Origin: an uncultured bacterium
GTDB lineage: Bacteria; Patescibacteriota; JAHJAL01
Direction of reading: 5' to 3'
NCBI GenBank assembly: GCA_938004065.1
Contig: CALKWM010000020.1
Location: 1,813-65,812 of the forward strand
DNA length: 64,000 nucleotides
Part shown: positions 305 through 22,047 of the stretch, piece after piece
Position numbering within the stretch: position 1 is the stretch's first letter
How the letters are laid out: each line of letters starts with the position of its first letter
Notes under the pieces: model-generated
The model's input: only the letters and a program-made list of their open reading frames with translations
Told to the model about the DNA's origin: nothing
The model's database searches: none
Translations under genes and position numbers: made by a program

Positions 305-340
305 AAACTTCCTTTAAAAAGATATAAAGATGGGCAGTAT

Positions 341-472
341 TTCACATAACGTTTGCGTGTATGAGAAGTTTCGCCGACTTCCTCATTATTTTATCATAGA
401 GGAGGCGAAATTTGGGCGGAGGCTTTCGGAAGTATGGAGAAAGCCGTAGCCAGATACACGCTGTTATGTGTA
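341..472 (+). repeat. Module B variant (mosaic)
   Basis: It shares the 5' arm tatttcacataacgtttgcgtgtatgagaagtttcgccgacttcc and the ggaggcgaaatttggg block. Its distinct 3' part ends in cagatacacgctgttatgtg. Confidence 0.7.
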
Positions 473-621
473 GTATTGGAAAACAAAGTCGACGTTAGGA
501 GACTTTATGCTTTGGGGAATTTTTTCTAATTTCAAAAACTTTTATTTTCTTTGCGAGCGATAGCGAGCTCCTTATTTTAGGGGCGAAAAATTTTTAACGT
601 CGCAAAGCGACACCTTGTTCT

Positions 622-1236
622 TTACGGTTCAATTCCTAAAATTAAAAGCGGCACTGGTGGATTATTGCGACCATGACGAAGCACATTGTAAACTTCACCT
701 TCATAATAAGCCACACCAGAAGACATTTGCGATTGCATTTTTTTGGTTGGCAAAATTTCAATACCAAGATTGATCACACCACCTGAATAAAAAAGCAAAT
801 GCTTAACAAAAAGATCAAAAGCTACAAAAGCATATTTTCCAAATTGCACTTCGATTGCGATTTGATCTTTTACAAAATCAGTTTGCTTGTAGGAAGAAAT
901 TGGCTCTTTGTTGCCATGTTTGATTAAAAAATCTTTTTGTTCGGCATAAGGCAACACGATCAATTCATTCATTAGCTTTGGATCAGTCGTAATGTAGTAT
1001 TGATAGCGACTTTCGTGCCAATTTTTCGCATTGAACTTTTTGTTAAATTCCTTGTTAATATCTAAAGGACTATAAAGCATTTTGCCTTTCATTGTCTTTT
1101 CTTTGCTTTCTTTGGTTATAAATTTGTTGGCATCAATGCTTTTAATTGTGCTAATAATTTCATCATAAAGTTTTTTATGATGAACAATCAGATATTCTTC
1201 GCCGTTTAAATGTGAATATTTTTGAGCAATTTTCAT
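622..1236 (-). CDS. Putative Type II restriction endonuclease, BglII/BamHI-like
   Basis: The 204-aa ORF sits 12 bp downstream of a beta-class MTase. It has a candidate catalytic core TDFVKDQIAIEVQFGK, i.e. D...E-x-Q as in BglII, and the size is typical for this fold. Confidence 0.5.
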   Translation of the reverse strand: MKIAQKYSHLNGEEYLIVHHKKLYDEIISTIKSIDANKFITKESKEKTMKGKMLYSPLDINKEFNKKFNAKNWHESRYQYYITTDPKLMNELIVLPYAEQKDFLIKHGNKEPISSYKQTDFVKDQIAIEVQFGKYAFVAFDLFVKHLLFYSGGVINLGIEILPTKKMQSQMSSGVAYYEGEVYNVLRHGRNNPPVPLLILGIEP

Positions 1237-1247
1237 AATGTTAAGTG

Positions 1248-2174
1248 CTAATTGGTTAAAGCAAGACGAATATCATCGCCAAATTCAACGAAAATATTTT
1301 GTTGGTTATCTTCTTTTGGTTTGTAAATTGGCTGATTCATTGGTCGCGTTTTGAGTTGTCCATAAGATAAAAGGTTTACTCTTTTTTTCGCAATATCTAA
1401 ATATTTTTGTTCAATATCTGCTCCAGCACTTTTTCGATTATGTAAAAGTGAAGCAACAGCAGTTGTGCCAACGCCCATAAAAGGATCAAAAACAAGATCA
1501 TTTTCTTGTGTCATTGATAAAACAAGTCTTTCAATCAAGGCTACTGGAAATTGACAAGGATGATCAGTTTTTTCAATATGATTACTTTTTACGTTTGGAA
1601 TATCCCAAACATCTTCGGGGTTTTTCCCAAGCGGATTACACGAAAGCTCTCCTTGTTTATCTCCCTTAAAATGTTTTTTGCCAGGATATTTTTGCGGAAC
1701 ACGAACAGGATCAAGATTGAAAAAATAATTGTCGTTTTTTGTAAACCAAATAATCGTTTCATATCTTCCTGAAAAACGCTTGGAAGCGTGAAGACCATGG
1801 CCAAAACGCCAGACAATGCGATTTCGCATTTTCATTCCAAGTTTGTCAAAAATCGGATACATCACAATATCCAAAGGAATAATTGAACCGTTATCAACAT
1901 AATTGCCAGTTTGCCAACAAATACTGCCCTCTGGTTTTAAAATACGATAGCATTCCTTGATTACTTGTTCCTGAAAATCAAGATAGCTTTGTATTTTTTG
2001 TCGTTTTTCATATTCTTTTCCAATATTGTAAGGAGGAGAAGTAACGACTAATTGAACCGAGTTATTAGGGATTTGCTTGAGCAAATCCATGCAGTCTCCC
2101 AAATAAAGAGTTAAATCATTACTCTTTTTATATTGTTCGCCGATTATAATCTTTTTGTTAAATAATGTTTGCAT
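1248..2174 (-). CDS. Beta-class N4-cytosine/N6-adenine DNA methyltransferase
   Basis: Motif IV VVTSPPYNIG lies near the N-terminus and motif I DPFMGVGTTAVAS near the C-terminus. This IV...I order defines a beta-class amino-MTase. Confidence 0.85.
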   Translation of the reverse strand: MQTLFNKKIIIGEQYKKSNDLTLYLGDCMDLLKQIPNNSVQLVVTSPPYNIGKEYEKRQKIQSYLDFQEQVIKECYRILKPEGSICWQTGNYVDNGSIIPLDIVMYPIFDKLGMKMRNRIVWRFGHGLHASKRFSGRYETIIWFTKNDNYFFNLDPVRVPQKYPGKKHFKGDKQGELSCNPLGKNPEDVWDIPNVKSNHIEKTDHPCQFPVALIERLVLSMTQENDLVFDPFMGVGTTAVASLLHNRKSAGADIEQKYLDIAKKRVNLLSYGQLKTRPMNQPIYKPKEDNQQNIFVEFGDDIRLALTN

Positions 2175-2330
2175 AAGCCTTTTATATTTTAATAAAAAAT
2201 TTCTAATTTAATAATAAAGAAAATAAAAGTTTTTTCCAATTCGAAAAATTCCCCAAAGCATCAGAAATATTTTTTGTTTCTTTCTTTAAAATCAATTTAG
2301 GAAACAAAAATATTTCTGGTTTTCCAATAT

Positions 2331-2467
2331 TTCACATAACGTTTTCGAGTATGAGAAGTTCTGTTGAAGTGAAACGAAACAGAATTTGGGTTAAAAATAT
2401 TTTACGTTCATCTATTTAATTACTAAAAGGTAAAATATTTTTGCCTCATACTCGATGTTGTAGGATG
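2331..2467 (+). repeat. Module B variant (mosaic)
   Basis: tatttcacataacgttttcgagtatgag ... cctcatactcg keeps the same architecture with a compensated terminal inverted repeat. Confidence 0.7.
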
Positions 2468-2593
2468 TAAATTTTTTATCTGTATTTAAATTCGTTAAAC
2501 TCTGTATTACTTCTAAGAAAACTTGATTTTTTGTTTTAAAAAATTCCAGAGGGGCAAGGGGTGAATGGAATTTTTTAAAACTCCTTATTGTAT

Positions 2594-3085
2594 TTATGCG
2601 ATGATACTTTTGATAATTTCCTCAGTCGGCTTATTAGTTGTGATGTTAATGTGTTTTCCCGGCATGACCGAGTAATCAAAGCTTTCCGTTTCAATTTGAC
2701 TTAATAGTTTTTCATCAGCCTCCTGATGACACGCATGTCTTTCGCGCGACAAGACTCGATCTTTTCTAGTGATATTATCAGCACTACATATAACAAAAAA
2801 CAAATTAACTTTAAATTTTTCTTGCCATTTTTCAAAAATTGCAGCATCTTCTTTAAAATTGAATGGGCCTTCAATAATTAAGTCAACGCCGTTAGAAATT
2901 TGTTCCTCTGTGAATTTCAAAAGTAGGTTTAGGGCTTTCGGTGTCAGAACGTCCAAGACGTCGTGCACTGTTGCTTTGATTTTGTCCTTATGAAGACAAA
3001 CAATGTTTAGTTGTTTTGAAAGTTCTTTGGCGGTAGTTGTTTTTCCTGACCCACCTAGACCACAGACTACGATAAGCTTACTCAT
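2594..3085 (-). CDS. P-loop NTPase / predicted kinase (AAA_33-like)
   Basis: Walker A motif VVCGLGGSGKTT is present. At 163 aa it is a small stand-alone kinase-like protein. Confidence 0.6.
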   Translation of the reverse strand: MSKLIVVCGLGGSGKTTTAKELSKQLNIVCLHKDKIKATVHDVLDVLTPKALNLLLKFTEEQISNGVDLIIEGPFNFKEDAAIFEKWQEKFKVNLFFVICSADNITRKDRVLSRERHACHQEADEKLLSQIETESFDYSVMPGKHINITTNKPTEEIIKSIIA

Positions 3086-3086
3086 A

Positions 3087-3965
3087 TTATTCTTTGGTTA
3101 ATTCATAATCAACTTCGTTGATTCTTGTTTTCATTTTTCCGTCATTATCAATTGTTACAGAAATGCCCGCACCAAAATCAACGGGTAAATATCTATCTCC
3201 GATTGGCTCTTTAAGTAATTCTTTTTTCACGAAAGGACTAATAGTGTCATAATGAGTAAAATTAAAAATAATTAATCTGCTGTCAGGATTTGCTTCATGA
3301 AATTTTGCCGAATACCTCTGTAAAACAATTAAGAATTTTTTCAATCTATCTGCTGTTTCCTCTGGACCTTCAGCGTTCATTTCAAGGCGCACGTCCTTCT
3401 CTTTGTCTCTATCAAAAGCTTGCACAAAATCAGAGTTTTCAGGGTATAGCTCAGCTAAGTAGCTTCCAAAAGGAGAGCTTTTGTCTATGTCTGGTGATAT
3501 TCGTAGTCTGGCTGTCGGTCTAGGCATTCCTTGTCCAGTATTTCTGTATTCTCGGGTGTAATTTAGGAAGTTATTTTTATCAATATTATATTTTTCTAAT
3601 ATTTTAATAACTTCTTCTGAAAATATTGTTCCTGTTTCCATCGCACGCGCACCTTTGCCAGGATAAGTTGAATCACTTCCTAAAACTAAGAAAAATATCT
3701 TTTGCCGTTCGGATTCTGGAATGGTTTCGATTAATTTGATTAATCTTTCGCTAGATTCCTCTTTCGCTGCTTCACGTCCTTTTGGCGTTAATTTTCCATG
3801 TTCTGGTGAAGTACTATTTTTCTCGTGTTCTTGGTGTCGCTGAAACACAATCAACGTTTCGTTTTGTTTTAACGAATGACTTTCTAGGATATTTCTACTT
3901 TCAATTTTATTGATTTGGTTTTCAGGGCCTTTAAACATTGTATTTATATAATAATTATTCGTCAT
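3087..3965 (-). CDS. Histidine phosphatase superfamily protein (PGAM/SixA-like)
   Basis: LIVFQRHQEHE matches RHG-type catalytic Arg-His. LTPKGREAAKE matches the LTxxGxxQA region. FNFTHYDTISP near the C-terminus supplies the second catalytic His. The stop is 1 bp from the kinase gene. Confidence 0.5.
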   Translation of the reverse strand: MTNNYYINTMFKGPENQINKIESRNILESHSLKQNETLIVFQRHQEHEKNSTSPEHGKLTPKGREAAKEESSERLIKLIETIPESERQKIFFLVLGSDSTYPGKGARAMETGTIFSEEVIKILEKYNIDKNNFLNYTREYRNTGQGMPRPTARLRISPDIDKSSPFGSYLAELYPENSDFVQAFDRDKEKDVRLEMNAEGPEETADRLKKFLIVLQRYSAKFHEANPDSRLIIFNFTHYDTISPFVKKELLKEPIGDRYLPVDFGAGISVTIDNDGKMKTRINEVDYELTKE

Positions 3966-4090
3966 TTTATTTTCTTAAGAAATAGAATGACACCATATTA
4001 CCCCTCATTAATTAAAAAAATCAAATTTTCTGTCCCTTTAAAACCACCAAAGGCCTGAAATTATCACAAGATAAAAAATTTATTTTCTAC

Positions 4091-4248
4091 AACGTGCCGC
4101 GGCTGATCCGATCGTGGCCAAAGGCCGCCGCAGGCGAGCCGATGGACATGTCGGATAGCCGCTGTTAGACGACGTCGCGGAGCGACGGAGGATAACGGGG
4201 GCGAAGCCGCGGCACGTTAGACAACGAGCGAAGCGATGTTGGCTAACG
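4091..4248 (+). repeat. GC-rich palindromic repeat module A, copy 1
   Basis: About 158 bp. Its ends, aacgtgccgcggct...agccgcggcacgtt, are perfect inverted complements. Internal hairpins include ggcc-aaa-ggcc, ccga-tggacatg-tcgg and cgacgtcg. It is visibly GC-rich against AT-rich surroundings. Confidence 0.85.
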
Positions 4249-4251
4249 TTT

Positions 4252-4388
4252 GCGTGTATGAGAAGTTTCGCCGACTTCCTTATTATTCATTATAGAGGAG
4301 GCGAAATTTGGGTGAAAGAAAAAGTGCAACCTTTGAAAATATTTAACGCACTTTTTCTTGAACCTCATACACGCTGTTATACGCTGTT
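4252..4388 (+). repeat. Structured repeat module B, copy 1 (always 3' of module A via a ggctaacgt junction)
   Basis: gcgtgtatgag...ctcatacacgc is a terminal inverted repeat. Inner stems are tttcgcc/ggcgaaa and aaaagtgc/gcactttt. Confidence 0.8.
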
Positions 4389-5048
4389 TCGCCCGTCGTT
4401 GATTTCAATATCAAGCTGTTTAATATAATCTGTCATAAATTCAACAAGTGGCTTTGCAAATTGCCTCGCCGATTCAGTACTCAAATTGTCATAACAACTA
4501 ATCTGAAAGTTGATTTGGTCTATAATAAAATTGCCAATACCAATTCCACCGTCAAAGCGTTTGTCAAAATCAACCGCTTTCATTTGCCATGTTTCACCTT
4601 TAATATCGGCGACATCATATTCTGGTTTTGAAGATTTAGAAGTGAAAGCTCTCATGATGCCGACCGCACCAAACAAATCCATCATATCAGCATCACGCAA
4701 AATTTTTAATAATTTGCCTTCGCCTTCGCGGTTTTTATTGTGAAATTTTATCGCATTACAAATCTCGGCAATTTTATCTTGTGTGAGTAAATTATTTTCT
4801 GTTAAAAATTTTGCGGACATTTCAGCACCAACTTCGCCATGCAGATTGCGTTTTTCAGCTTTTGTTAATCCAATATCATGCATTAAGGCTGAAATTTTCA
4901 CCACTTCTAAATCTTCAAAACTTTCCTTATCGGCAATTTGCAAAGCCCAATTTTTAACACGAACAACATGTTTAAAGTCATGAGCAACTTCATTGCTCAT
5001 AACGCTTTTTACATAATCTTCCACTTGTTGAATTTTTTTATTTATCAT
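4377..5048 (-). CDS. HD-domain metal-dependent phosphohydrolase
   Basis: The H...HD...D signature is present as AHDFKHVVRV ... ALMHDIGL ... LRDADMMD. The true start is probably MINKKIQ (ATG 5046-5048). The track ORF's N-terminal extension runs into a GC-rich repeat and is likely spurious. Confidence 0.7.
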   Translation of the reverse strand: MINKKIQQVEDYVKSVMSNEVAHDFKHVVRVKNWALQIADKESFEDLEVVKISALMHDIGLTKAEKRNLHGEVGAEMSAKFLTENNLLTQDKIAEICNAIKFHNKNREGEGKLLKILRDADMMDLFGAVGIMRAFTSKSSKPEYDVADIKGETWQMKAVDFDKRFDGGIGIGNFIIDQINFQISCYDNLSTESARQFAKPLVEFMTDYIKQLDIEINDGRNSV

Positions 5049-5068
5049 GTTTGAAATTTTAGTATAGG

Positions 5069-5352
5069 GCGAAATTGCGTATAATGGGCGGCGTTTATGC
5101 AACGTCTTGTATGGACGAAATCGTAAGATTTCGGACAGACGGGATGTAGCGAAGCGGTGCATAAACGACAGTTGTGCGAAGCTCCGCCTAAGCACATACT
5201 GGCGTGAAACGCCGCCCATTGTGCAAAATGAAGCGAAGCGGAATTTTGCACAACGTATCGGCATATCTGATGTTTGCCGTAGCGTAGCGGAGGCAAATAT
5301 GGGTGGAGGCTTTTGTATAAAAGCCGTAACCAGATATGCCGTGTTAGCTGAT
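5069..5352 (+). repeat. Mosaic repeat module E (A-like 5' part + B-variant 3' part)
   Basis: It begins attgcgtataatgggcggcgttt (cf. attgcgtataacgtgccgcggct of A). Its stems are aatgggcggcgttt and aaacgccgcccatt. It ends with ggaggcaaatatgggtggaggctttt...agccgtaaccagatatgccgtgttagctg, as the 341-472 variant does. Confidence 0.7.
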
Positions 5353-5419
5353 GTATTCCTTTTCTTTTTTCCGACAGCAGTCGGAATTGTTTTAAAAAAT
5401 TTTCAAATTTCTTTTTACG

Positions 5420-5537
5420 TTTTGGATTTTGGGCAGAGGGGTTAGGGGTGAATGCCCAAAATTCAAAACACAATATTTCTTTTTCGTTTGAGGGAGGGGC
5501 AAGAGGGGAATTAAAGGGGTGAATTGCCCCGACCGAA
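5420..5537 (+). repeat. Twin-hairpin repeat module C, copy 1 (3' of a minus-strand gene)
   Basis: attttgggca-gaggggttaggggtgaa-tgcccaaaat, then ggggcaa-gaggggaattaaaggggtgaa-ttgcccc. Both are perfect stems. Confidence 0.8.
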
Positions 5538-5543
5538 TTCTAC

Positions 5544-6535
5544 TTACTTGTTTTTGTATGGTGTCCATTGGGGGTTTTCTTTGATATATTCTTTTAAATA
5601 ATTAAGCGTTTTATTAGAATATTTTTGCACTTTTGATGTTTTTCCAGATTTAATCGAGGTGTGATATTCAGGATTATTTAATAATTTTAAATGTTTTATT
5701 AATTTTTGAATAAAATATGATGTTACATTCATTATACGAGAAAGGTCTGATTGTAAAAATGGATAATCAACTTCAGGATTACTTTTTTTGACTAAAACTG
5801 TAAGTGATTCCGATGTCTTTTTTGCTTTATTTGTAGTAATTTCAGATTTGTATCCTTTTGACGTTTCTACTGGCACTATAATAACATTCTCTTGCTTGTT
5901 TGTATAATCGTTTATTGACAAATGTCGACCAATTCTAGCTTTTTTTTGTTTTGATTTTATGTCATTTAGCCAATCCTTGTGACTAATAAATGTATTTTCA
6001 TTTTCGGTTTCGGCAAACTTGCAAGCACGATCAAGAATATATAACGCTCTATTTTTTTCTGACTTTGATTTTCTTGAGTATGCAAATAATCTACCTATCT
6101 TGTGTGAGTAAAATGTATGATCTTTAAATGCGACAGATAGATAATTTTTATCAAACTTTATAAAATATGATCTAAATTCTTCCTTTAGAATTTTATGAAA
6201 AGATTTTAAAGACCAGTAAATTAAGTGAGTTATGATTTCATCATCAAGATCGGGATAAATATTATGTAGTGATTCATTTCTTAAAGATATAATTTGTTGA
6301 ATTGTTTGATTTTCTTCCAATGATATTAAATGAGCTACATGGTGTAATTGATTGACTGCTTTATTAAAATTGCCTTGGAAAGCAGTTCCCATGCTTGCGC
6401 ATTAAATATTACTGATGCTTGCCTAGAGTGCGATCCCTCAACTCTATTGAACATTTCTATGCTTAATTTTGCAGCGTTTATGGCTGTATTCACGTGGTAT
6501 TGATATTTCATTATACGTGATTTTCTTTTTGCCAT
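5544..6535 (-). CDS. Hypothetical protein split over two overlapping frames (6335..6535 and 5544..6392); possibly frameshifted, with an N-terminal R-x4-H (HEPN-like) motif
   Basis: The two minus-strand ORFs overlap by 58 bp in different frames, directly downstream of the large MTase. The upstream piece contains AINAAKLSIEMFNRVEGSHSRQ, an R-x4-H pattern. Confidence 0.3.
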
Positions 6536-6536
6536 A

Positions 6537-9500
6537 TTATTTTATTGAATTTTCTACAATTTCAATTTCCTCTGGCGTAAGTTCGTAGAGTTTATAAACA
6601 AGCTGATCAATTTGCGATTCAAGATTTTTAGTATCCGCGTCTTTATTTTGTTTTTTGAGAGTTAAAATTTGATCAACTAATTTTACTAATGAATCTTGTG
6701 ATTCCTGACTGTTACGAATAATAGGAATTTGTGACATAGAGCCATTTTTTTGAGCTAAAAAATATTTATATCCACCACCTGCGTCCTTACCCTCATTTTT
6801 ATACCAAAAATTTAAAAGCTTTGAATTTAAAATAGCGACAATGTATTTTAATGCTAAGTCTGAATTTTCTTTTTTTAATAAAACAGGAACATTACCCACG
6901 GTAAAATAATTATCATCATCATAACTAAAACGATTTTCATCTGAGCGATAAGGTGTTAAAATTTTTTCTTGTTCAAAAAATTCCTTTTTTCTTGGCCAAT
7001 TTATGCTATACCATGGTATCTTGCCACTAACGCACTCTCGTTTTTTTTCTAATAAAACACGATATTTTTCAAGGTGTTTTTTTATATTTGGATACTTTTC
7101 TATGTGATGATCTTTTGTTATATAAATTAAATAATGTCTTTTGCTTCTTCTATTGGTAGCAAATTTCTTTACTTCATCAGTTGTAATCCAATCTTTTATT
7201 AATTCCTTTTTTTCTTCCAAATTTGGGCTTATTTCTGTTAAATCATTTTCTGTTAAGATAAAAATGCCTTTATTGGCTTCCCAATTTTTATTATATTTTG
7301 TTGCCAAAGTATTTGTAACTTTATCCGCACCTGTAATTATCCCTTGTTTAATTTCACAATATTCTGAAATAGGTTTACCTTTTTTCTTAATTTTATTTAT
7401 TAAATCTAAAACATCGGAAGATTTTGCATTTTCTGCGGGGATATCAATAATTAAATCATTCCCTTTATATAATTGTTGTTGTTCGAGGGAAGCGTAAAGA
7501 GATTTTTTATCTGACCAATCAAAAATAGATCTAAGAATTTCCGAATCAGCAAAACCTTTATTTTGCGTGCTACATATATTCGCTAAAAAATTTTTATCTG
7601 TGTTTTTTTCTAAAATTGTTATTATATTATGTTGCCCTAGAGCTGATTTGAATATTTTTAAATCATTGAAATTGATCAACTTTTTTATTATAGTACGTTT
7701 TTTAAAATCTTCTCTCAAGATTTTTGCCCCATTGGAAGATAGATAATAATTTGTTGTTATAAAAGATAGTTGTCCACTTTCTTTTAACAAATTTAATGAT
7801 CTATGAAAAAAGAAGTAGAACAAATCCATTCTACGTTTGTAAAAATTACCAAGAGACCCCATTCTCACAATTCTAAATATTTCTTTATGTCCTTTTTCAC
7901 CAACATACGGTGGATTTCCTATCACAACATCAAAGGCTTGAACCCCGTGCATTAATTCCGGATCGTAAAATTCTGAAGATGAGCTAATATCAAACGGTTT
8001 ATAGCTTTTTAATTGCTGTGTTTTTTTGTTATCAAACAAACTAGCATTTTGCGTAAGCTTTAGATAATCCTTTTGCAATTTTTCTTTTTTTATTTTGCTA
8101 CTTGTTTTGAAATATTCATTCCGAATAGTTATCAATTTATCTTTTAGATCATGGTCGGTAAGAAATGTTGCTTGCTCAGTGTTATCAAGCGGAATAAGTG
8201 TGTTGGCGCAAACAAATTTAAACTCAAGGTTTGGCAATGGGTCAACCTTTTCACCTTCTGGAATATCCACAATTATTGAAAGCCAAGCTCGCAGACGAGT
8301 GATCTCAATGGCTGTTTGTTCAATATCCACACCATAAAGTGATCGTGATAAAATATCTCGTTTTAATCCCGAAATATCTTTTTCAAATTTTGGATCAAGG
8401 CGAGAATATACTTTCACGAGTAAATGAAGCATGCCCATCGGAAAAGCACCAGATCCAACCGCAGGATCAAGCACTGTGAGAGGAGATTCTGTTTTTGAGC
8501 CTTCAAGCGCTTTTATAATAGCTTCACGATACGGCTTCCAATCACGACGTTTATTTTGATCCTGATCACGGAATATTGCTTCAGGCATACGCACAAGCTC
8601 TTCTATACGACGATCACGATCTGGGGCTTCTGGAACTTTAGTCTTGAGATATTCAATCAAGGATTGCTCGCACATATAGCTCACGATTTCTCGCGGAGTA
8701 TAAAAAGCACCGGTGGCTTTCTTTTTGCTATTGCCCGTATTTTCGTCAATTTGCTCTGCAAGCAAACTCTCAAAAATACGCCCCAACATTTCAGGATCAA
8801 TAGCGACATGCTGGAATTCCGGACTACTTTCATCAACTGTAAAATTGTATTTATTTAAGGTTGTAAAAAGTTGATTAAAATAACCATTTGGAAAAGTTAG
8901 TTTTGGGTCGTTGAAAAAATCAGTCGTGTTTTTATCAAAAAGACCACCGTTCAAATAAGGAGTCAATTTATCGCCGTTATCTCTTTCTAGTTCTTCTCGA
9001 TTTAATACTTCAAAAAAAAGTTTTTCCAGTTGGTTTTTGTAGTATTCTGATTGTTTTTCCGGATCAATCACCGAAAAATAATTAACATTATTATTTACTA
9101 AATTTTTCTTTTTCAAAAACCAAATAAAAAGCAAACGTCCAATAAGTCTGGTCGTGAACATTACTGACTGTTTGCGTCCAAAATCTTTTTCAAGATGGTG
9201 TACTAAAATGCTAAAATGTTCAACCAATTCAAGGTAAAATTTGCGATTGATCGGTTCAAAGTTGAAGCTTTCCCAAAGTTTTGAGTGTAAAGTATTTTTT
9301 AATTCAGCCTGATCAGCAATCTCTAATTCGGAAAGTTTCGCCCATTGAGTAAATATTTCTAATTGGGTTGGGGTAATATGATCTTTTAATTCAAGAGCGC
9401 GAATCTTAAATCTATTAGAAAGCAAAACTATTATACTATCGCAGGTTTCTGGTACAACAAAATCAATCCCTATATTTTTATAATCATTTGAAAGTGCATC

Positions 9501-9824: not shown

Positions 9825-9827
9825 AGG

Positions 9828-13262: not shown

Positions 13263-13295
13263 AATAATTTAGTTTACCTGTTGTTATTGTATTCG

Positions 13296-13354
13296 TTTTC
13301 CCCTTATTAATAAATCGTTTTCGTAGCGGAGCGGAGAAAACACCTTATTCCCCT
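13296..13354 (-). promoter_or_regulatory. Conserved 58-bp leader element D, copy 1 (upstream of the PLD-SNF2 gene)
   Basis: The minus strand reads agaggggaataaggtgttttctccgctccgctacgaaaacgatttattaataaggggaa, about 35 nt upstream of ATG 13262. Confidence 0.5.
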
Positions 13355-13398
13355 CTATAATTAAAGAAAAAGAAATTTGAAAATTTTTTAAAACAATT

Positions 13399-13590
13399 GG
13401 GCGATAGCCCAAAAAAGAAAAGGAATATTTCAGCTAACGTTCCAGCGTATGCGATGTTTTTGCGACCAACGGGAGCAAAAATATGGGAGAGGGGCGAGCC
13501 GAGCCCCGAACCGCATACGCTGTGTTATACGCCCCGACGACCGAAGGGAGGAGAGCGCAGCGGGGCGCGACTGAAAGGAGCGAGTTCAAA
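13399..13590 (+). repeat. Mosaic repeat module F (same family)
   Basis: It contains gctaacgttccagcgtatgcgatg ... ccgcatacgctgtgttatacgc (B-like arms), ggagcaaaaatatgggagagggg and a GC-rich tail. Confidence 0.65.
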
Positions 13591-13655
13591 AAATATTTTT
13601 CATTCAATTTCATTTTGACAGGCTTTTTATTCAATAATTATAAATTTGTTTTTTT

Positions 13656-13768
13656 GTTTTGGATTTTGGGCAGAGGGGTTAGGGGTGAATGCCCAAAATC
13701 CAAAACTCCTTATTCTGTTTGAGGGAGGGGCAAGAGGGGAATTAAAGGGGTGAATTGCCCCGACCGAA
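13656..13768 (+). repeat. Twin-hairpin repeat module C, copy 2
   Basis: About 95% identical to copy 1. It lies 7 bp from the stop of the 13775..14695 MTase gene. A partial relative is at 2545-2576. Confidence 0.8.
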
Positions 13769-13774
13769 AACATT

Positions 13775-14695
13775 TTATTTCAATATTTTGTATTTTTTCT
13801 TATCAAGCAACTTTAGATCGCCTTTGCTCTTCCAAATTTCTTTGAAATCTTTGTTTCTCATAGTCCTAATGTGTCCAAGGTAAACTGAAACAAAATGCCC
13901 GTTGATTTTTGTTTCTTTTGTTGCCTTGATATTTTTTTCAGCAATTTTTACATAATCAGAATCAAGCTCAATTCCAATGTATTTTCTACCTAGTTGTTTA
14001 GCCGCAACCGCAGTTGTGCCAGTTCCCATGAATGGGTCAAGTACTACATCATCTTCATCTGTGGTCATTAAGATCAATCTCTCAAGTAGAGGGATTGGGA
14101 GTTGACAAGGATGTTCATCTCTTCGCTTTTTATGCCGGATCCGATGAATATCATTCCAAACATCAGAAAGTAATGGCCCAAAACCATGGGCTTGATCTTT
14201 TTTACCGCCGTAATCTTTTAAAAATTCATCACAAGTTCTACATCTTGGGTGCGGATATCTAATGTCATTAAATTTAAAATCTTTATGAGATTTTGATTTT
14301 GTATAATATAAAATTCCATAATGATTTGGTAATAAAGTTTTACCCATTGGTGCGCCGCCAGAATCCCAAGCAATCCAATGTCTGAAATATGCAATTTTAT
14401 TTAAATGCTCCGCATAATGCGAAAGCCAACGAGGAATATTGTGAACAAAAATTGCACCGGTTGGTTTTGTAATCCTGACCATTTCGCTCATCCAATCATT
14501 ACACCAATTCAAATAATCTTGCTTTTCTTTTGAATCCTCATAGTGATTATATTTTTTCTTTAAATTAAAAGGCGGATCGGCAAAAGTCATATCTACCGAA
14601 TTATCCGGTATTTCTTTCAATACCTTTAGGCAATCGCCCTTAACAATTGTATTTATATAGTTTTTTTTCATAATTAAGATATTGTTAAATTCCAT
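13775..14695 (-). CDS. Beta-class N4/N6 DNA methyltransferase
   Basis: Motif IV MTFADPPFNL is N-terminal and motif I DPFMGTGTTAVAAKQLG is C-terminal. It is a paralog of the 1248..2174 MTase. Its start overlaps the stop of the upstream gene by 22 bp. Confidence 0.85.
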   Translation of the reverse strand: MEFNNILIMKKNYINTIVKGDCLKVLKEIPDNSVDMTFADPPFNLKKKYNHYEDSKEKQDYLNWCNDWMSEMVRITKPTGAIFVHNIPRWLSHYAEHLNKIAYFRHWIAWDSGGAPMGKTLLPNHYGILYYTKSKSHKDFKFNDIRYPHPRCRTCDEFLKDYGGKKDQAHGFGPLLSDVWNDIHRIRHKKRRDEHPCQLPIPLLERLILMTTDEDDVVLDPFMGTGTTAVAAKQLGRKYIGIELDSDYVKIAEKNIKATKETKINGHFVSVYLGHIRTMRNKDFKEIWKSKGDLKLLDKKKYKILK

Positions 14696-16362
14696 ACATT
14701 CATAGCAATTTCTGCTAATTTTTCTTGCCGATTTTTTATTGACTCAGCTGACCATTCATTATAATCGTCATTTATCATTTTAGTTATCCATAAATCAGAA
14801 CTTTGATATCTAGATTTTTTATCTGTAAAAGGAGCATTTCCTTCTTCTGAGTTTGGTCGTGATTGCATTAATGTTAAGTTGCCAATACGATTTTTATATT
14901 CATTCAGTTCCTCTTCGGAAAAATTAGGCCAATTTTCGCTTGGATTTTTTGGGAGAATATGCTCTAAATTAACAGCGCTGGGATCACTATTAACTAAAAG
15001 TTCCGGATCATCTATACCACCTCTTTTATGATTTTCGATGGCCCTCAAATAATAGCGAGCATATTTTTCAGTGCTAGATTTTGCATAAATAAACTTATCT
15101 TTAAATTCGCTATCAGATGGAATAATATGTTGAAGAGCGGTTTTTAAATCCGTAGCATTATTTATTTTCCCCTCCGCTATATCTTTGGCCTTTTTAGCAT
15201 ACTCGACTTCAAGTGTACCTCCTCCAAGAGAGCCAGTTATTAAATTTCTAACGAGCCATGAAACAATTAATTTTAATGATTTTCGAATCTCTTGTTTGTT
15301 GGTGAATTTTTTGAGAATTGATAATAGCAAAGGCCTGTATTGTTCCAAATTAAAAAAATTTAATGTTTCAATGTATTGTTTTACTTTTGGATCAAAATCG
15401 TTCCAATATTGATGATTATGATTAACGATTGCTAAATATAGAGAAGTATCATTTTTTAAATTATTAACAAAAGTAATTGATTGTGTCGTATTGCGAATTT
15501 GACTTTTTATATCATTGTACAACTCCCTGTTTTTTTCTCTGGTAAGTCCGTTTTGGGCAGACCAATAATGCTTAATATATCTCAATATTAAACTTTCATT
15601 TTCTGCTGTTTCTATTTGAGATGTCATTTCAATCCAAGTATTTTGAATTTCCTCAATCCGATCACTTGCTTTGCTATATAAATAATTTTTAAGAAGATCT
15701 ACTTGCGCTAATTCCAAGCCCCTATCATTAAGAGTTTCGCAAATTGTGAAAGCGTTGGCTTTACTTGGGACAGTTATTGTCACGACTTTAAGTTTGTCAG
15801 ATATAAATTCTATCCAGTCATGCAAAATATTCAAATTCGCATCCGATAATTCGGCCAATTTATTTATTTTTTGAATTGATAGTTGTTTGGTATTTTTTAT
15901 TCTTTCGTGAGATTCCTTTGTTGACAAAGTAGCTTCATTTTTATTAACAATATATTCTCTAAAAAATATATTATCCAAATTGCCCAATTTAATTTTAGGA
16001 AGATGCTCTCCTGTACGCCTGTTAAATATACTCAAAAAGTCTTGTTGTATAGAATTGGCTTGTTCGTCTTCACTTCTTTGTCTAAAAAATTGTTCTACTG
16101 CTGATAAAAAAATATAAATGGAAGTAATTCTTTGTTGGCCATCAACGATCTCGAGCTCGTCAGAGTTTTCTTTTTCAGAAAAAACAATAGTTCCGAGAAA
16201 ATATTCATTTTCATTATTGCTAATTGCATTATGAATATCATTGAACATATCATCAATATGTTTTTTTTCCCATGCATAAGGACGTTGATATATTGGCACC
16301 GCGAGTTGATGCTCTTTTATCACCTTTCCGATCCCTTTAATTTGAAAGTTAATGCTACTCAT
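14674..16362 (-). CDS. DUF262(ParB-like NTPase/nuclease)-DUF1524(HNH) protein, GmrSD-like
   Basis: The N-terminus shows the DUF262 DGQQR signature in ...IYQRPYAWEKKHIDDMFNDI...EIVDGQQRITSIYIF. The C-terminus has an His-Me finger-like LEHILPKNP. Gene order matches GmrSD/SspE/BrxU-type enzymes. Confidence 0.75.
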   Translation of the reverse strand: MSSINFQIKGIGKVIKEHQLAVPIYQRPYAWEKKHIDDMFNDIHNAISNNENEYFLGTIVFSEKENSDELEIVDGQQRITSIYIFLSAVEQFFRQRSEDEQANSIQQDFLSIFNRRTGEHLPKIKLGNLDNIFFREYIVNKNEATLSTKESHERIKNTKQLSIQKINKLAELSDANLNILHDWIEFISDKLKVVTITVPSKANAFTICETLNDRGLELAQVDLLKNYLYSKASDRIEEIQNTWIEMTSQIETAENESLILRYIKHYWSAQNGLTREKNRELYNDIKSQIRNTTQSITFVNNLKNDTSLYLAIVNHNHQYWNDFDPKVKQYIETLNFFNLEQYRPLLLSILKKFTNKQEIRKSLKLIVSWLVRNLITGSLGGGTLEVEYAKKAKDIAEGKINNATDLKTALQHIIPSDSEFKDKFIYAKSSTEKYARYYLRAIENHKRGGIDDPELLVNSDPSAVNLEHILPKNPSENWPNFSEEELNEYKNRIGNLTLMQSRPNSEEGNAPFTDKKSRYQSSDLWITKMINDDYNEWSAESIKNRQEKLAEIAMNVWNLTIS

Positions 16363-16364
16363 AA

Positions 16365-17354
16365 TTATTTTTTTATAAAAGTGTCAAGTAATAGCTTTTC
16401 AAACCGTTTTAATTCTTCCTTATGAAAAGTAAAAACATCCTCATAGGCTGTAACCATTCTTTTTAGATCGCCTTTTCTGACATACCAACCAACACCATCC
16501 ACAAAACCAATAAATTTCGCCTTTGGATAATGCGACTTGATAAGTGAATCAATAGAAATCTCTGTTTTTGATTTATCGCCTTGACCGGATGAAGTTGTTA
16601 CCAAAAATGAGCTTTCGGCAATAATTAACGGATTTTGTTTGTTCGGAATAATAAAATCCATCGTTCTTTTATTATCGGGGGCATTGTCAATTAGTTCGCT
16701 GAGGTCGCCCTTTTCAAACGGTATTTCTAAATGATTTAAAATTTCTTCAATTAAAATTTCCGGATTATTTTCTTTCATTCCGGAATAGCTGCCTTTTTCT
16801 TTATATCTAATTAAAGTGTCGATCATTTCCGGCAATTCAAATTTTAGTTTTGAAATACTTAGTTTCTTCAATTCAAATAGCGGAATAGTTTTTGTTAAAA
16901 ACGGAACTGTTGAACCTTCAAAGAAAATATTTAAAATTCCTTTTCTGAAAAATTCATTTTCTTTTATAAATTTTGCTATTTGAGCGTCTGACCACTCTTT
17001 CAGATTATTTATATCTTCATCCTTAAACCATTTGTCCTTATAAACCAACTTACTCAATTCTGGATCATTAACAACTCTAATAATTGTAGTCAATCTTTTT
17101 AAGGTTTCGTTTGAAAATCCGGTCAAAGCAAGCAACGCCCTAAGACCATTTTCTTTTTCAATTAGTAGCTGTTCAAAAAATTCCTTTTTCAATCCCTGTG
17201 TTTCAATATTATTTTTCAATATCAAAAGCATTTCTTTTAACGAGTTTAGATAACCTTCATATTTTTCTTCAAAAGCTGGATTGAAAAAATAAAAAGTATT
17301 TTTATCAATCACAGTTTTAAATTTCAATTCGGTTGTAGGTTTTGTGTATTTCAT
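16365..17354 (-). CDS. Hypothetical protein; candidate restriction endonuclease partner of the adjacent alpha-class MTase
   Basis: The 329-aa ORF sits 5 bp after the MTase stop and 2 bp before the DUF262 gene. It has a possible nuclease core MDFIIPNK...IIAESSF. No confident motif was found. Confidence 0.3.
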   Translation of the reverse strand: MKYTKPTTELKFKTVIDKNTFYFFNPAFEEKYEGYLNSLKEMLLILKNNIETQGLKKEFFEQLLIEKENGLRALLALTGFSNETLKRLTTIIRVVNDPELSKLVYKDKWFKDEDINNLKEWSDAQIAKFIKENEFFRKGILNIFFEGSTVPFLTKTIPLFELKKLSISKLKFELPEMIDTLIRYKEKGSYSGMKENNPEILIEEILNHLEIPFEKGDLSELIDNAPDNKRTMDFIIPNKQNPLIIAESSFLVTTSSGQGDKSKTEISIDSLIKSHYPKAKFIGFVDGVGWYVRKGDLKRMVTAYEDVFTFHKEELKRFEKLLLDTFIKK

Positions 17355-17359
17355 AATTG

Positions 17360-18610
17360 TTATTTTTGATTAGTAAAAAATAATATGGATTCCTCCTTCA
17401 TCGTATTTTGTAACCCCCGGATCGGCTTCTTTAAATTAAGTTCAAATTTTAGTCCTTGTTTTTCTCCAAGCTCAGTGACTTTTGTTTCCAGTCTCACGCC
17501 ATTTGTTTGAATATCGTTTGTGCCAATAATTATAACTATAGGCGCGTTTTTCTTTGATACCCGTTTCATTTCACCAAGGGCTTGATTCATTTTGTCAAAA
17601 TAAATTTCTAATTTATTTTCCACGCCTCGCCCCTGTAGGCCGATCATCTCTTGTCGCAAAACTTCCAGATCGTAGCCGAGATATTCTAATTGGGGCTGAT
17701 CATTTTTTAAATAATCAATAGCAAAAGAATAGGGCGGTGAAGTGATTACTGCGTCCACGCTATTATCACCAAGCGGCAAATTTAAAATACTACCTTGAAC
17801 GATTTTACTTTTTCCGATTTTTAAATCCATTTTTTTTCTTGCTTCTTGAAAATATTTTAACGTTGAAACATATCTGTCCAATACACGCGGGAAAAGTTTA
17901 TCAATAGAAGAACTGCTTCGGCCGGCAAATCCGACGGTATCTAAAAATGCTAATAAAATTATTTCATAGTAGTGTCTTTTTTTATCGTCTTTATTGTTTT
18001 TAAAATATTCTGGAACTTTGTCTTTTTTCAACTTATCCAAAATTTCTTTTGGATTTTTAATAATTGACTCTAAAATTTTAATATCCAAATTTAGAGCAAA
18101 TGTTTTAACTTTTCCCATTAGCTCACAAAATGGGCTTAAATCAACAGAGATAGCATCAATTCCGAGCAAATTAGCCTCAACTGCAACAGTAGAACTCCCG
18201 GCCATTGGATCAAGAACAACATGGCCGGGTTTTATATCAAGTATATTTAACAATGCCCTTATCAGTTGCGGGTGAAATTTTCCACGATATGGAAAAAGGC
18301 CATGAGTTGCGTATCCAGTTGAATATTTCCCGTCTAAAAAGAAAATTTTTGTCCGGAAAGAGCTATTTTTATGAACTTCTTCTAAATTTTGAAGGTTGCA
18401 AGTTTTATAATGAGCTGTTTCTTTCCCGTCAACTAATTTAAAATATGCGCTTCTTTCAACTAATTCTTTTTTTGATAAAACCTCATATTCCCACAAAGCT
18501 AAATCTAATTCAAAAATCTCATCAGTCCCGTCAATGAGATAAAAATTATTACCAAATAGCCTTTCTATGATCGGTTTATGCTTTGTAGTCATGATAGTAT
18601 TATAGTTCAT
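17360..18610 (-). CDS. Alpha-class N4/N6 DNA methyltransferase
   Basis: The motif I-like VVLDPMAGSSTVAVEA precedes AVITSPPYSFAIDY (motif IV) by about 150 aa. This is the I...TRD...IV order. Confidence 0.8.
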   Translation of the reverse strand: MNYNTIMTTKHKPIIERLFGNNFYLIDGTDEIFELDLALWEYEVLSKKELVERSAYFKLVDGKETAHYKTCNLQNLEEVHKNSSFRTKIFFLDGKYSTGYATHGLFPYRGKFHPQLIRALLNILDIKPGHVVLDPMAGSSTVAVEANLLGIDAISVDLSPFCELMGKVKTFALNLDIKILESIIKNPKEILDKLKKDKVPEYFKNNKDDKKRHYYEIILLAFLDTVGFAGRSSSSIDKLFPRVLDRYVSTLKYFQEARKKMDLKIGKSKIVQGSILNLPLGDNSVDAVITSPPYSFAIDYLKNDQPQLEYLGYDLEVLRQEMIGLQGRGVENKLEIYFDKMNQALGEMKRVSKKNAPIVIIIGTNDIQTNGVRLETKVTELGEKQGLKFELNLKKPIRGLQNTMKEESILFFTNQK

Positions 18611-18668
18611 TTCCCCTTATAAATAAATCGTTTTCGTAGCGGAGCGGAGAAAACACCTTATACCCCTT
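18611..18668 (-). promoter_or_regulatory. Conserved 58-bp leader element D, copy 2 (upstream of the alpha-MTase operon)
   Basis: Same sequence with 3 substitutions. It abuts ATG 18610. Confidence 0.5.
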
Positions 18669-18760
18669 TCTAATAAATAAAAAAACAAATTTATTCCCCT
18701 TTTTAAAAAGCCTGTCAAAATTCCTTATAAAAAGAAAAATATTTTTTGAATTGCGTATAA

Positions 18761-18916
18761 CGTGCCGCGGCTGATCCGATCGTGGCCAAAGGCCGCCGCA
18801 GGCGAGCCGATGGACATGTCGGATAGCCGCTGTTAGACGACGTCGCGGAGCGACGGAGGATAACGGGGGCGAAGCCGCGGCACGTTAGACAACGAGCGAA
18901 GCGATGTTGGCTAACG
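18761..18916 (+). repeat. GC-rich palindromic repeat module A, copy 2
   Basis: Identical over about 165 bp to copy 3 and nearly identical to copy 1. Same orientation. Confidence 0.85.
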
Positions 18917-18917
18917 T

Positions 18918-19056
18918 CCGCGTGTATGAGAAGTTTCGCCGACTTCCTTATCGTTTATTATAAAGGAGGCGAAATTTGGGTGAAAGAAAAAATGCAACCT
19001 TTAAAAATTATTAACGCACTTTTTCTTGAACCTCATACACTCTGTTATATGCTGTA
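18918..19056 (+). repeat. Structured repeat module B, copy 2
   Basis: About 95% identical to copy 1. Confidence 0.8.
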
Positions 19057-19060
19057 TTTT

Positions 19061-19351
19061 TTACCATTTCGTACTAAAAGGAAAGATATTTTGGGGTAGC
19101 AGTTGAATTCCTTTAAAATACGTCCCACTTGATAAACAACCACTGCCACAGCTGTTATATTCAATTTGAACAGAGTAAAGTAAAAAGAGTACTAGAAATA
19201 CAAAAAATAATATAGAACGCCATTTAGATAAAACTTTTTTTCGTAGTAAAAACAAAATAATAGCTAGTGCTCCGAATAGAAGTCCTAATACAGTAATGTA
19301 AATATAAGTTTGTTGTGTGCAAACTGTTGGGCACAACATCATTAAATCCAT
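19061..19351 (-). CDS. Small hypothetical membrane protein
   Basis: The 96-aa ORF has two hydrophobic segments. It is flanked on both sides by identical ~165-bp GC-rich module-A repeats. Coding status is uncertain. Confidence 0.3.
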   Translation of the reverse strand: MDLMMLCPTVCTQQTYIYITVLGLLFGALAIILFLLRKKVLSKWRSILFFVFLVLFLLYSVQIEYNSCGSGCLSSGTYFKGIQLLPQNIFPFSTKW

Positions 19352-19379
19352 AATTTTTTAAGTTAAATGGTAAAAAATA

Positions 19380-19544
19380 TTGCGTATAACGTGCCGCGGC
19401 TGATCCGATCGTGGCCAAAGGCCGCCGCAGGCGAGCCGATGGACATGTCGGATAGCCGCTGTTAGACGACGTCGCGGAGCGACGGAGGATAACGGGGGCG
19501 AAGCCGCGGCACGTTAGACAACGAGCGAAGCGATGTTGGCTAAC
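19380..19544 (+). repeat. GC-rich palindromic repeat module A, copy 3
   Basis: Same sequence as copy 2. It lies 110 bp upstream of the tyrosine recombinase gene. Confidence 0.85.
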
Positions 19545-19653
19545 TAGTATATATACGAAAAGTTTATCTTATAATATACTGAAAATAGTAGTGTATAAGT
19601 TTATCAAGTAAATATTTATTATTTATCTTAATTTTACATTTTTGTAATACTGT

Positions 19654-21919: not shown

Positions 21920-22047
21920 TTATGAGCCAAAATACCAAGCGAAAAAAGCATAAGAAAGAACAAGAAGTTTCGGTTCCAGTTACTGAGTGACTGGATTGTT
22001 TCTAAATATCCAGAATGCAAGGTAGCCGATGTGGGTGGAGGTAAAGG
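21920..22047 (+). repeat. Direct repeat copy 2 (intact 5' end of the SAM-MTase gene)
   Basis: Same 46-bp core. It encodes the mini-ORF MSQNTKRKKHKKEQEVSVPVTE, followed out of frame by the MTase N-terminus. Confidence 0.8.

Follow-up and report, generated by a model that had tools for sequence, protein, structure and literature searches.

What are the palindromic repeats that punctuate a defence island in an uncultured Patescibacteria bacterium, and how are they related to the tyrosine recombinase gene at its edge? The island lies within a stretch of 64,000 nt (contig CALKWM010000020.1 of assembly GCA_938004065.1), all of which we refer to as the window. An earlier note, made from the letters of the sequence, had described repeat modules A and B in the island and proposed three candidates for them: a structured non-coding RNA (ncRNA) family, which it favoured, elements like miniature inverted-repeat transposable elements (MITEs), or recombination sites for the adjacent recombinase. 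The last is the best supported of the three, the elements being located exactly at insertion breakpoints. We consider it likely that positions 337-20466 constitute an integron-like gene-cassette platform of a bacterium of the Patescibacteria, or Candidate Phyla Radiation (CPR): the repeats are hairpin recombination sites that separate mobile, mostly phage-defence cassettes beside a small Xer-like recombinase.

Insertion breakpoints and distribution of the repeat units

The window is AT-rich (GC content ~34%). All sizeable open reading frames (ORFs) across 622-19351 are on the minus strand and encode restriction-modification and other defence proteins according to Pfam and PADLOC, and the recombinase gene diverges from them on the plus strand. 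With AAC (or AAT) positions as boundaries, 351-19544 splits into six gene cassettes and four units with no ORF. Six copies of module B, with covariance-model E-values of 1e-20 to 1e-30, are located at the 3' end of each minus-strand gene block. Module A occurs in three copies (4088-4218, 18756-18886, and 19385-19515), which are 96-100% identical and bear exact 14-nt complementary termini (AACGTGCCGCGGCT / AGCCGCGGCACGTT).

Much of the earlier description of the repeats was correct, including the three near-identical A copies with their termini. Repeats are present in all seven intervals that it named and are confined to 338-19544 within the window; a covariance-model search of the 64 kb with the filters off gave nothing better than E = 0.1 beyond 19475. 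It spoke of at least 11 segments and listed seven intervals, and our count is ten hairpin units plus one recombinase-proximal site. Besides A and B there is a fourth, A-like module, C (5086-5254), which had been overlooked inside 5069-5352. The statement that B always follows A applies to just two of the six B copies, and after the third A copy comes the recombinase-proximal site, not B. The copies are not uniformly GC-rich, B2 having 28% GC, and the shared block ggaggcRaaatWtgggYg is exact in three copies and has no exact fit in the others.

The recombinase-proximal site is designated attI-like. Its consensus in 25 CPR lineages is ATtTCa.aTAAC|T.GTtt.TAT.Cgaa (bar, boundary position), 70-140 nt upstream of the recombinase ATG. 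In the window it is found at 19533-19565, ~110 nt upstream of the gene, and can be written ATTTCAnnTAAC | TnGTTTnTATrCGAA. Its conserved right half is TAGTATATATACGAAAAG, more arm-like repeats lie downstream, and its left flank is formed by the third copy of module A (ggctaac|tagtatat).

We compared this region among related loci, which are numbered with the prefix L. L004, L005, and L006 encode an identical recombinase protein and share 99.6-99.8% identity over 1500 nt to the right of AAC|T, and they are unrelated leftward; the breakpoint among them is AAC|T, ~107 nt upstream of the ATG. The loci of the closest relatives likewise have a conserved downstream side of the recombinase gene, and their upstream side consists of differing blocks of minus-strand genes. 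A single insertion is visible in L092 and L094, which come from one Portnoybacteria population and have an identical recombinase. In L092 a PALP-domain cassette is located directly at the attI-like site, and L094 carries an extra 1020-nt unit exactly at the AAC, consisting of a 259-aa minus-strand ORF and a B element. On its two sides this insertion is flanked by sequence that agrees with L092 at 100% and 98.4% identity, and each end of the unit bears a copy of a 13-nt left arm. Beyond the AAC/GTT triplets, 23 of 25 positions at one end of the unit are complementary to the other end, as would be expected for a circle with a long palindrome that had been opened at one side of the palindrome.

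Permuted ends of the same kind are found throughout the window. In all ten units, the sequence 3' of the hairpin agrees better with the reverse-complemented far end of its own unit than with that of any other, with scores of 13-24 for cognate ends versus 6-12 for the best non-cognate ends. The scores were 18 versus 7 for c7, 20 versus 11 for c6, and 21 versus 9 for c2, where a 26-nt inverted repeat (19044-19069 / 19365-19390) brackets the ORF. The ends of c5 are complementary at 17 of 19 positions (GTTATACGCTGTTTCGCCC versus the reverse complement of GGGCGAAATTGCGTATAAT), and those of c4 match at 26 of 28. In c3 the match stops at GTTATACGC and resumes ~60 nt on at TTCAAAAAATATTTTTC, with a GC-rich insertion of ~50 nt between.

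The same architecture is widespread in CPR bacteria. Near the recombinase gene, the B model gave 36 matches with E < 1e-5 in 12 CPR lineages, all of them upstream of the gene in one orientation and none downstream, and it gave no match when 957 kb surrounding 51 non-CPR Xer genes were searched. From the attI-like site out to the last B, the ORFs are on the minus strand, often one per B; past that point, their orientation is mixed. A metagenome scan with a degenerate pattern yielded at least 80 loci, 77 of those listed being confirmed by the B model, and at least 159 B elements in at least 77 loci. Among the matches listed, B elements were on mixed strands in 0 of 45 multi-B loci, the median B spacing was 858 nt, exactly one ORF was present in 52 of 82 inter-B intervals, 90 ORFs were antisense to B and 12 on the same strand, and eight of nine recombinase-bearing loci had the same geometry.

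The cargo extends beyond defence. In L004, genes for a leucyl-tRNA synthetase, an acetyltransferase, a peptidase of family S51, and a Na/Ca-exchanger are each placed between B elements. The synthetase (3762-6188 of L004) is a full-length protein of 808 aa, and it may be an extra, possibly inhibitor-resistant copy.

B elements are also found between small genes in genuine phage contigs that encode terminase, major head protein, and DnaD- or DnaB-like proteins, and near-identical copies of window B4 are present in L003 and phage contig L107. The B-type hairpins in phage contigs from IMG/VR (L107, L108, L112, L109, L110, L114) lie between small genes at intervals of 300-500 nt; the B4-like copy in L107 is a single B (10683-10798) next to the terminase gene. 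Some phage copies are a bare bulged hairpin without the two inner hairpins P2 and P3 described below. The phage sites could be phage-captured cassettes or phage attachment sites that use the host recombinase.

Hairpin structure of the sites

Module B is an imperfect palindrome, and its folding strand, the plus strand, is complementary to the cassette mRNAs. The left arm ATTTCAnnTAAC pairs with GTTAnnTGAnGTAAT to form the outer stem. Inside this stem are a conserved G.T pair and a 3-nt bulge, followed by the inner stem P1 (nnnnnTATnnG paired with CnnATAnnnnn) and, in the majority of copies, a three-way junction from which two variable hairpins extend. The 5' part of the plus strand consists of (A/T)ATTTCAnnTAAC, G, the 3-nt bulge, and the 5' side of P1 (nnnnn-TAT-nn-G); the middle part leads through A-n-GTT into hairpin P2 and through AAwwT-GGG into hairpin P3; the 3' part consists of RRCC, the 3' side of P1 (nn-ATA-nnnnn), and T-GTTA-n-n-TGATGTAAT. 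The stem runs past AAC and GTT because the outer flanks pair mutually.

The inverted repeat gcgtgtatgag/ctcatacacgc and its compensated variant cgagtatgag/cctcatactcg are both located in module B copies, as the earlier note had stated. It took the compensatory change as a sign of a selected structure, and the alignments agree with this. In an alignment of ten B copies, 93% of cells are paired, compared with 30-46% after sliding of the 3' partners, and two-sided changes are seen in 14 pairs; in an alignment of 45 sequences, the values are 96% versus 27-46%, and 20 of 28 pairs have changed on both sides. AAC/GTT is invariant in 43-44 of 44 sequences, and the junction nucleotides are conserved. 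Two G.U (G.T) pairs, which are C.A mismatches on the other strand, are near-invariant (38 of 40 and 34 of 44 sequences). The sole conserved unpaired feature is the 3-nt bulge on the 5' (R'/L') arm of the folding strand, which is accompanied by the conserved G.T pair. The outer five pairs of P1 are free in sequence yet complementary, and selection therefore acts on pairing rather than on a protein-binding sequence.

Strand asymmetry was evident in folding calculations. The z-scores of the repeats are -11 on the plus strand and -7 on the minus strand, and the fold energy of 4085-4395 is -150 versus -126 kcal/mol. With DNA energy parameters, the model strand of B is the stabler one in 181 of 195 elements among the matches listed. 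The motif GCGNAGC, a classic and very stable DNA mini-hairpin, occurs 37 times on the B model strand versus three times on the opposite strand.

The folded site is also related to the attI-like site in detail. The 5' half of B resembles the attI-like consensus, sharing the left arm and AAC, which are followed by GT, the bulge, and the TAT-nn-GA arm, and the B covariance model matches attI-like sites too, albeit weakly. When folded, the base of B mimics the duplex attI-like site, with an identical left arm followed by the TAT-nn-GA right arm at near-equal spacing.

Modules A and C are long GC-rich hairpins that start directly after an AAY triplet and close with the complementary RTT (AAC with GTT, AAT with ATT). 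Each is followed by a small linker hairpin, whose 3' half (ATTTTGCAYAAC or GTTGGCTAAC) is a look-alike of the left arm and ends in the next crossover AAC. Every A or C unit in the window (three A and one C) and in L021 (three units) is located directly on the recombinase-distal side of a B or an attI-like site. Module C is also present in L005, with compensatory changes, where it adjoins the attI-like site and not B. A descriptor search for A/C found few copies in its strict form, and its relaxed form added AT-rich matches that are probably due to chance; therefore, no separate covariance model was made for A/C.

We propose that site-specific recombination would have stacked the six gene cassettes and the four ORF-less mini-cassettes at the attI-like site. 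The recombinase would exchange strands beside AAC, joining the B of a circular cassette to the attI-like site or to another B, at a position that would correspond to the G|TT crossover of integron attC and attI. Insertion would split the outer stem of the palindrome, so that its distal half would become the 5' end of the integrated cassette. For c5, the predicted circle junction joins 5085 to 4248 (...ATTGCGTATAAT|GTTTGCGTGTATGAG...). We infer that this recombinase catalyses the cassette exchange and that its substrate is the folded single-stranded DNA of the plus strand; by analogy with integrons and the CTX phage, the exchange would be resolved by replication.

The recombinase and rival readings

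Several observations weigh against an integron-like platform. The support for recombination comes from sequence comparison and is not experimental. The junctions are equally compatible with ordinary double-strand recombination, and folding is backed solely by covariation and strand asymmetry. For the window's species no excised circle and no empty site came to light, and the empty-site/first-cassette pattern AACTAGTATATATACGAAAAGTTTATC had no match in the JGI metagenomes. The cassettes of the window are unusually large, being multi-gene and up to 8.2 kb, and they carry their own conserved leader and trailer hairpins, which sets them apart from typical integron cassettes, these being promoterless. 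The model is weakest where it takes A and C to be mini-cassettes that have no ORF and multiply within arrays; these modules miss the TAT-nn-GA arm, and for this reason their status as substrates is also less secure. Metagenome locus L197 has a deviating geometry. Finally, two B elements of L090 (672-886 and 2750-2859) are on the opposite strand, each just 3' of a plus-strand gene; these B are inverted together with their genes, and therefore whole cassettes are inverted relative to the recombinase, with the polarity of gene and B kept.

The most serious alternative concerns the purpose of the site and the enzyme and overlaps the integron-like reading in mechanism. According to it, the recombinase is the dimer-resolving Xer of CPR bacteria, the upstream site is dif, and the cassettes are selfish elements that exploit Xer, like integrative mobile elements exploiting Xer (IMEXs). 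We regard this as possible, though not probable. The left arm ATTTCAcATAA resembles what we take to be the XerD-binding arm of bacterial dif, with Escherichia coli dif as our reference. A dif site that adjoins its single Xer gene has precedents in xerS and xerH. Moreover, B has two inverted site-like halves, as does the CTX attP hairpin, and phage genomes contain B-type sites.

The enzyme itself also points in this direction. The recombinase (19654-20466, plus strand, Pfam) is a Xer/XerA-like protein of 270 aa, which scores 226.9 bits against NCBIfam NF040815 (XerA type; cut-off 220) and 212 bits, in two stretches, against TIGR02249 (integron integrase; cut-off 265). The PDB entry that it matches best is the Vibrio integron integrase IntI4 (VchIntIA), of which ~56 residues (191-246) are missing, their place being taken by recombinase residues 186-199; the XerA structures 5hxy and 4a8e align with it in one continuous piece. 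The missing segment is the IntI-specific insert (I2 helix), and its absence is a further point against the integron-like reading. This domain is regarded as defining for integron integrases and as necessary for integron recombination (PMC9668308), and it is held to be the innovation that enabled single-strand recombination (PMC7790495; PMC4792948). Integron integrases need the I2 helix for folded attC, and recognition of the hairpin here would therefore have to work in another way. Thousands of close homologues of the recombinase are found in Patescibacteria, with >60% identity across CPR classes; judged by this very high conservation, the protein resembles a housekeeping Xer more than it does a dedicated integrase, which likewise counts against the platform. 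Tblastn detected no second tyrosine recombinase in the window. The tyrosine recombinases of candidate phyla have been described as a Xer-related 'Cand' subgroup, the function of which is only a presumed Xer role (PMC8138268).

The contents and occupancy of the loci argue for the integron-like platform rather than for dif. No empty sites were seen because at least one B is present in each locus that has 5 kb or more of upstream sequence. The uniform orientation, the usual single ORF, and the lack of replication or phage genes are the pattern of integron cassettes and not of IMEXs. By eye, the extra arm-like repeats at the site place it nearer to attI than to a minimal dif. GC skew shows no switch at the site in L024, L012, and L031 and a switch in the window, a weak indication given the short flanks and the inconsistency between loci.

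A second alternative accepts recombination and dispenses with folding: the substrate would be only the 5' site-like half of B as a duplex, with the second half and the hairpins serving termination, cruciform-dependent regulation, or another role. Xer-family enzymes normally use duplex sites, this recombinase has no I2 helix, and the left arm, AAC, and 5' half of B already look like a full attI-like site in duplex form. However, a duplex site would not explain why the outer five pairs of P1 vary freely and remain complementary, why the conserved G.T pair and 3-nt bulge are strand-specific, or why the same strand is consistently the stabler one, and the minimal forms in phages retain the hairpin only. 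We consider this account unlikely.

The ncRNA reading, in which B, A, and C are transcribed and their stems serve an RNA role as a regulator of defence genes, a processing site, or a terminator, could draw on the strong covariation including G.U pairs, the very low folding z-scores, and the conserved junction nucleotides. Nevertheless, it has become highly improbable. The Rfam search that the earlier note had proposed (Rfam 15; gathering threshold and E <= 5) found no family that matches the repeats: two tRNAs alone pass the gathering threshold, and within 1-20000 no relevant family appears at E <= 5. Its proposed folding and covariation test gave the z-scores and pairing described above. The better-folding strand is antisense to all neighbouring genes in at least 195 copies, a promoter and terminator scan of 18560-19700 gave no signal above shuffled expectation, and GCGNAGC loops are a DNA motif. 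In addition, insertion breakpoints fall at the elements and insertion splits their outer stems, which would not be predicted for an RNA function. A secondary role as a terminator on the sense strand is possible. As for particular RNA classes, a hammerhead or other small ribozyme was suggested by CUGAUG in one copy and rejected, since the core is not conserved across copies and has no Rfam match.

MITEs or repetitive extragenic palindromic (REP)-like palindromes moved by a transposase encoded elsewhere and gathering in a permissive island are just as improbable: A and C are indeed ORF-less and near-identical multiples within one array (three in the window, three in L021), which do behave as non-autonomous mini-cassettes multiplying within the array, B5 has a GC-rich piece of ~50 nt inserted in its outer stem, and phage genomes also hold copies, but outside the arrays there are no copies, as judged from the other 44 kb of the window and (for B) from the 10-kb downstream flanks of 35 loci, their orientation is strictly locked, insertion is always at the AAC of an existing site, as opposed to scattered targets that become duplicated, the unit that varies is an ORF with B rather than B alone, and none of the loci has a transposase gene.

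Beyond the window, it is somewhat probable that CPR bacteria hold a previously unrecognised, phylum-wide analogue of integrons, with a compact Xer-like recombinase that lacks the I2 domain, its own class of hairpins with a bulged stem and a three-way junction, and a defence-rich gene pool shared with CPR phages. Single-strand hairpin recombination may have been invented independently here, or the system may be a surviving relative of the postulated transition from Xer to IntI (PMC4792948; PMC7790495). In the literature we found no description of recombinase-linked cassette arrays in CPR bacteria; most subscription journals were outside our coverage, and a prior description is possible. If the reading is true, hairpin recombination without the I2 helix, and perhaps its origin, becomes testable, and the main route by which CPR genomes, tiny and otherwise streamlined, gain genes is revealed. 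It would also explain frequent breaks of CPR assemblies next to the recombinase gene, and the B covariance model would be a handle to harvest thousands of small accessory genes of CPR bacteria and their phages, including candidate defence and anti-defence genes, from metagenomes.

Map of the array and comparison with known systems

The array is described from the recombinase gene outward. The attI-like site and the intergenic promoter region (19533-19653) have their crossover after the AAC at 19542-19544. In first position is the A3 unit (19391-19544, plus strand), an ORF-less mini-cassette joined directly to the recombinase-proximal site (ggctAAC|TAGTATAT). Cassette c2 (18916-19390, minus strand) consists of a single 96-aa ORF (19061-19351) and its attC-like hairpin B6 (18903-19058, plus strand; AAC 18913-18915, GTT 19044-19046; 126 bits with the B covariance model). 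It is followed by the A2 unit (18762-18915, plus strand), an ORF-less mini-cassette with the second copy of module A and a linker hairpin. Cassette c3 (13439-18761, minus strand) encodes, by Pfam and PADLOC, a methyltransferase (17360-18610), a DpnII-like endonuclease (16365-17354), a GmrSD/HEC-06 type IV nuclease (14674-16362), and an N4/N6 methyltransferase (13775-14695), and it has a leader (18598-18691) and trailers (13624-13768). Its attC-like hairpin B5 (13426-13538, plus strand; AAC 13436-13438; 91.6 bits) has an extended outer stem with the GC-rich insertion of ~50 nt (13533-13585, plus strand) that interrupts the end complementarity of c3. This insert has the sequence cccgacgaccgaagggaggagagcgcagcggggcgcgactgaaaggagcga, and starts like it (cccgac/cccgaa) come after several B elements in L003, L004, L011, and L019.

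Cassette c4 (5255-13438, minus strand) is the largest and encodes an HKD/SNF2 helicase-nuclease (9828-13262), a type IIG-like methyltransferase of the Eco57I family (6537-9824), and a 282-aa protein (5544-6392; Pfam, PADLOC); its leader is at 13285-13378 and its trailers at 5387-5537. Its attC-like hairpin is B4 (5242-5357, plus strand; AAC 5252-5254, GTT 5343-5345; 97.9 bits). Next is the C unit (5086-5254, plus strand), an ORF-less mini-cassette with a branched GC-rich hairpin and a linker hairpin, having GCACAAC at the crossover. Cassette c5 (4248-5085, minus strand) is a classic one-ORF cassette, with an HD-domain ORF (4377-5051, Pfam) and the attC-like hairpin B3 (4235-4390, plus strand; AAC 4245-4247, GTT 4376-4378; 130 bits). 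The A1 unit (4094-4247, plus strand), also an ORF-less mini-cassette, comprises the module A hairpin (4091-4218) and a small linker hairpin with GGCTAAC at the crossover. Cassette c6 (2341-4093, minus strand) encodes an AAA_33/zeta-toxin-like kinase (2594-3085, Pfam) and a 292-aa protein of unknown function (3087-3965), and has a trailer hairpin (2533-2581) found by inverted-repeat search. Its attC-like hairpin B2 (2328-2471, plus strand; AAC 2338-2340; 95.6 bits) is AT-rich with a compensated stem P1. The distal cassette c7 (351-2340, minus strand) encodes a BglII-like type II restriction endonuclease (622-1236) and an N4/N6 methyltransferase (1248-2174; Pfam, PADLOC), and its attC-like hairpin is B1 (338-477, plus strand; AAC 348-350, closing GTT 463-465; 117 bits). 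The distal end of the array is a last left arm, gtATTTCACATAAC (337-350, plus strand), which fits the consensus ATTTCa.aTAAC common to attI-like sites and B. Adjoining it is the chromosomal gene ddl on the minus strand, with its start at 304 and its N-terminal domain recognised by Pfam.

Cassettes with unrelated genes have further conserved elements in common. The leader is located directly upstream of the first gene of unrelated cassettes and is also found in L003, L005, L006, L007, L009, L014, and L090; depending on the locus, it is joined to B or to the recombinase-proximal site. It holds a hairpin, cgttttcGTAGCGGAGCGGAGaaaacacc, and a ccccttat motif, and the loop motif is on the plus strand, antisense to the genes. 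The trailers lie between the last gene and B (5387-5477 / 13624-13714, 5486-5537 / 13717-13768, and 2533-2581) and are also present in L003 (~2330-2480) and at the start of L007. One of them is a perfect 17-bp hairpin with the loop GAGGGGTTAGGGGTGAA, and another, GGGAGGGGCAAGAGGGGAATTAAAGGGG, is a block of G-tracts that resembles a G-quadruplex on the plus strand and is C-rich in the mRNA. The NCBI assembly of the window's organism breaks at 13716, within a trailer element. Many other contigs end 80-830 nt upstream of the recombinase gene (L010, L013-L015, L017, L022, L023, L025-L027, L029, and L095-L099), which suggests that CPR assemblies break here systematically owing to the repeat-rich, strain-variable array.

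Other repeats of the window are located outside the array. Beginning at the 3' end of the recombinase gene, a 122-nt direct repeat (20461-20582 / 21920-22041; 84% identical) flanks a gene for an AAA_14/DUF4143 ATPase (20601-21779, minus strand) and duplicates the upstream region and start of ORF 22031-22468; the arrangement suggests a separate insertion that duplicated a long target. Three diverged repeats of ~95-120 nt, spaced 291-318 nt apart in a G-rich coding region (30230-30982), probably reflect a protein domain that is repeated. A long-arm tRNA gene (58022-58110) is flanked by 42-nt, 98% identical GC-rich double-hairpin repeats, AAGTGGTCGCCTCTTCGGCGACCTGCCGATGAGGCAGGTTGA (57709-57750 / 58184-58225).

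Among known systems, REP elements and bacterial interspersed mosaic elements (BIMEs) are similar in being mosaic GC-rich palindromic units of intergenic DNA, but they are spread over the whole genome instead of delimiting gene insertions at a single locus. The pdif/Xer modules of Acinetobacter plasmids (PMC7399989) are discrete gene modules bounded by Xer-type sites and shuffled between replicons, as here, whereas their sites are plain 28-bp duplexes in alternating orientation with no hairpin, and they have neither a fixed orientation nor an array next to the recombinase gene.

The IMEXs and the CTX phage are closer. According to Val and colleagues, who reportedly described it in 2005, the CTX phage integrates at dif through a folded single-stranded attP. 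Shared features are a Xer-family recombinase, a short target with a dif-like arm, phage genomes with related sites, an incoming site whose two inverted halves are site-like and can form a hairpin that leaves a central bulge unpaired, and successive insertions that lead to tandem arrays. In contrast, the cassettes here have no phage or replication functions, are small (the median of 858 nt among the matches listed), are uniformly oriented, and usually have one ORF. All loci examined here are occupied, and the site is at best a putative terminus dif.

Integrons match the platform in four independent respects: a recombinase gene that is divergent from the co-oriented cassettes, with the site where new cassettes enter beside it; cassettes of one or more ORFs followed by an imperfect palindrome, ORF-less cassettes also occurring; a crossover at the end of the palindrome distal to the ORF, with only the AAC...GTT triplets and the structure conserved; and better folding of the strand complementary to the ORFs. 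Palindromes are also alike within a lineage, as are the species-specific attC repeats of sedentary chromosomal integrons, among them the Vibrio cholerae repeats, and VchIntIA is the best structural match of the recombinase. As here, integron cargo includes defence systems (bioRxiv 10.1101/2024.07.02.601719; PMC12614218). On the other hand, the recombinase is without the IntI-specific additional domain that defines integron integrases (PMC9668308; PMC7790495), the 3-nt bulge is on the arm opposite to the canonical extrahelical bases of attC (R''/L'' arm), and the unpaired central spacer and extrahelical bases of canonical attC have no counterpart. B has instead a conserved TAT-nn-GA arm and a conserved three-way junction, the outer stems extend to 13-45 bp, many cassettes have a conserved leader and trailer, and the hosts are CPR bacteria, with sites in CPR phages as well. 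Since the integrase hallmark and the canonical attC structure fail, we describe the system as working like an integron and do not file it as one. The logic of integrons, namely a proximal insertion site, cassettes delimited by hairpins, and a stock of defence genes, is apparently run here by a minimal Xer-like enzyme without the extra domain.

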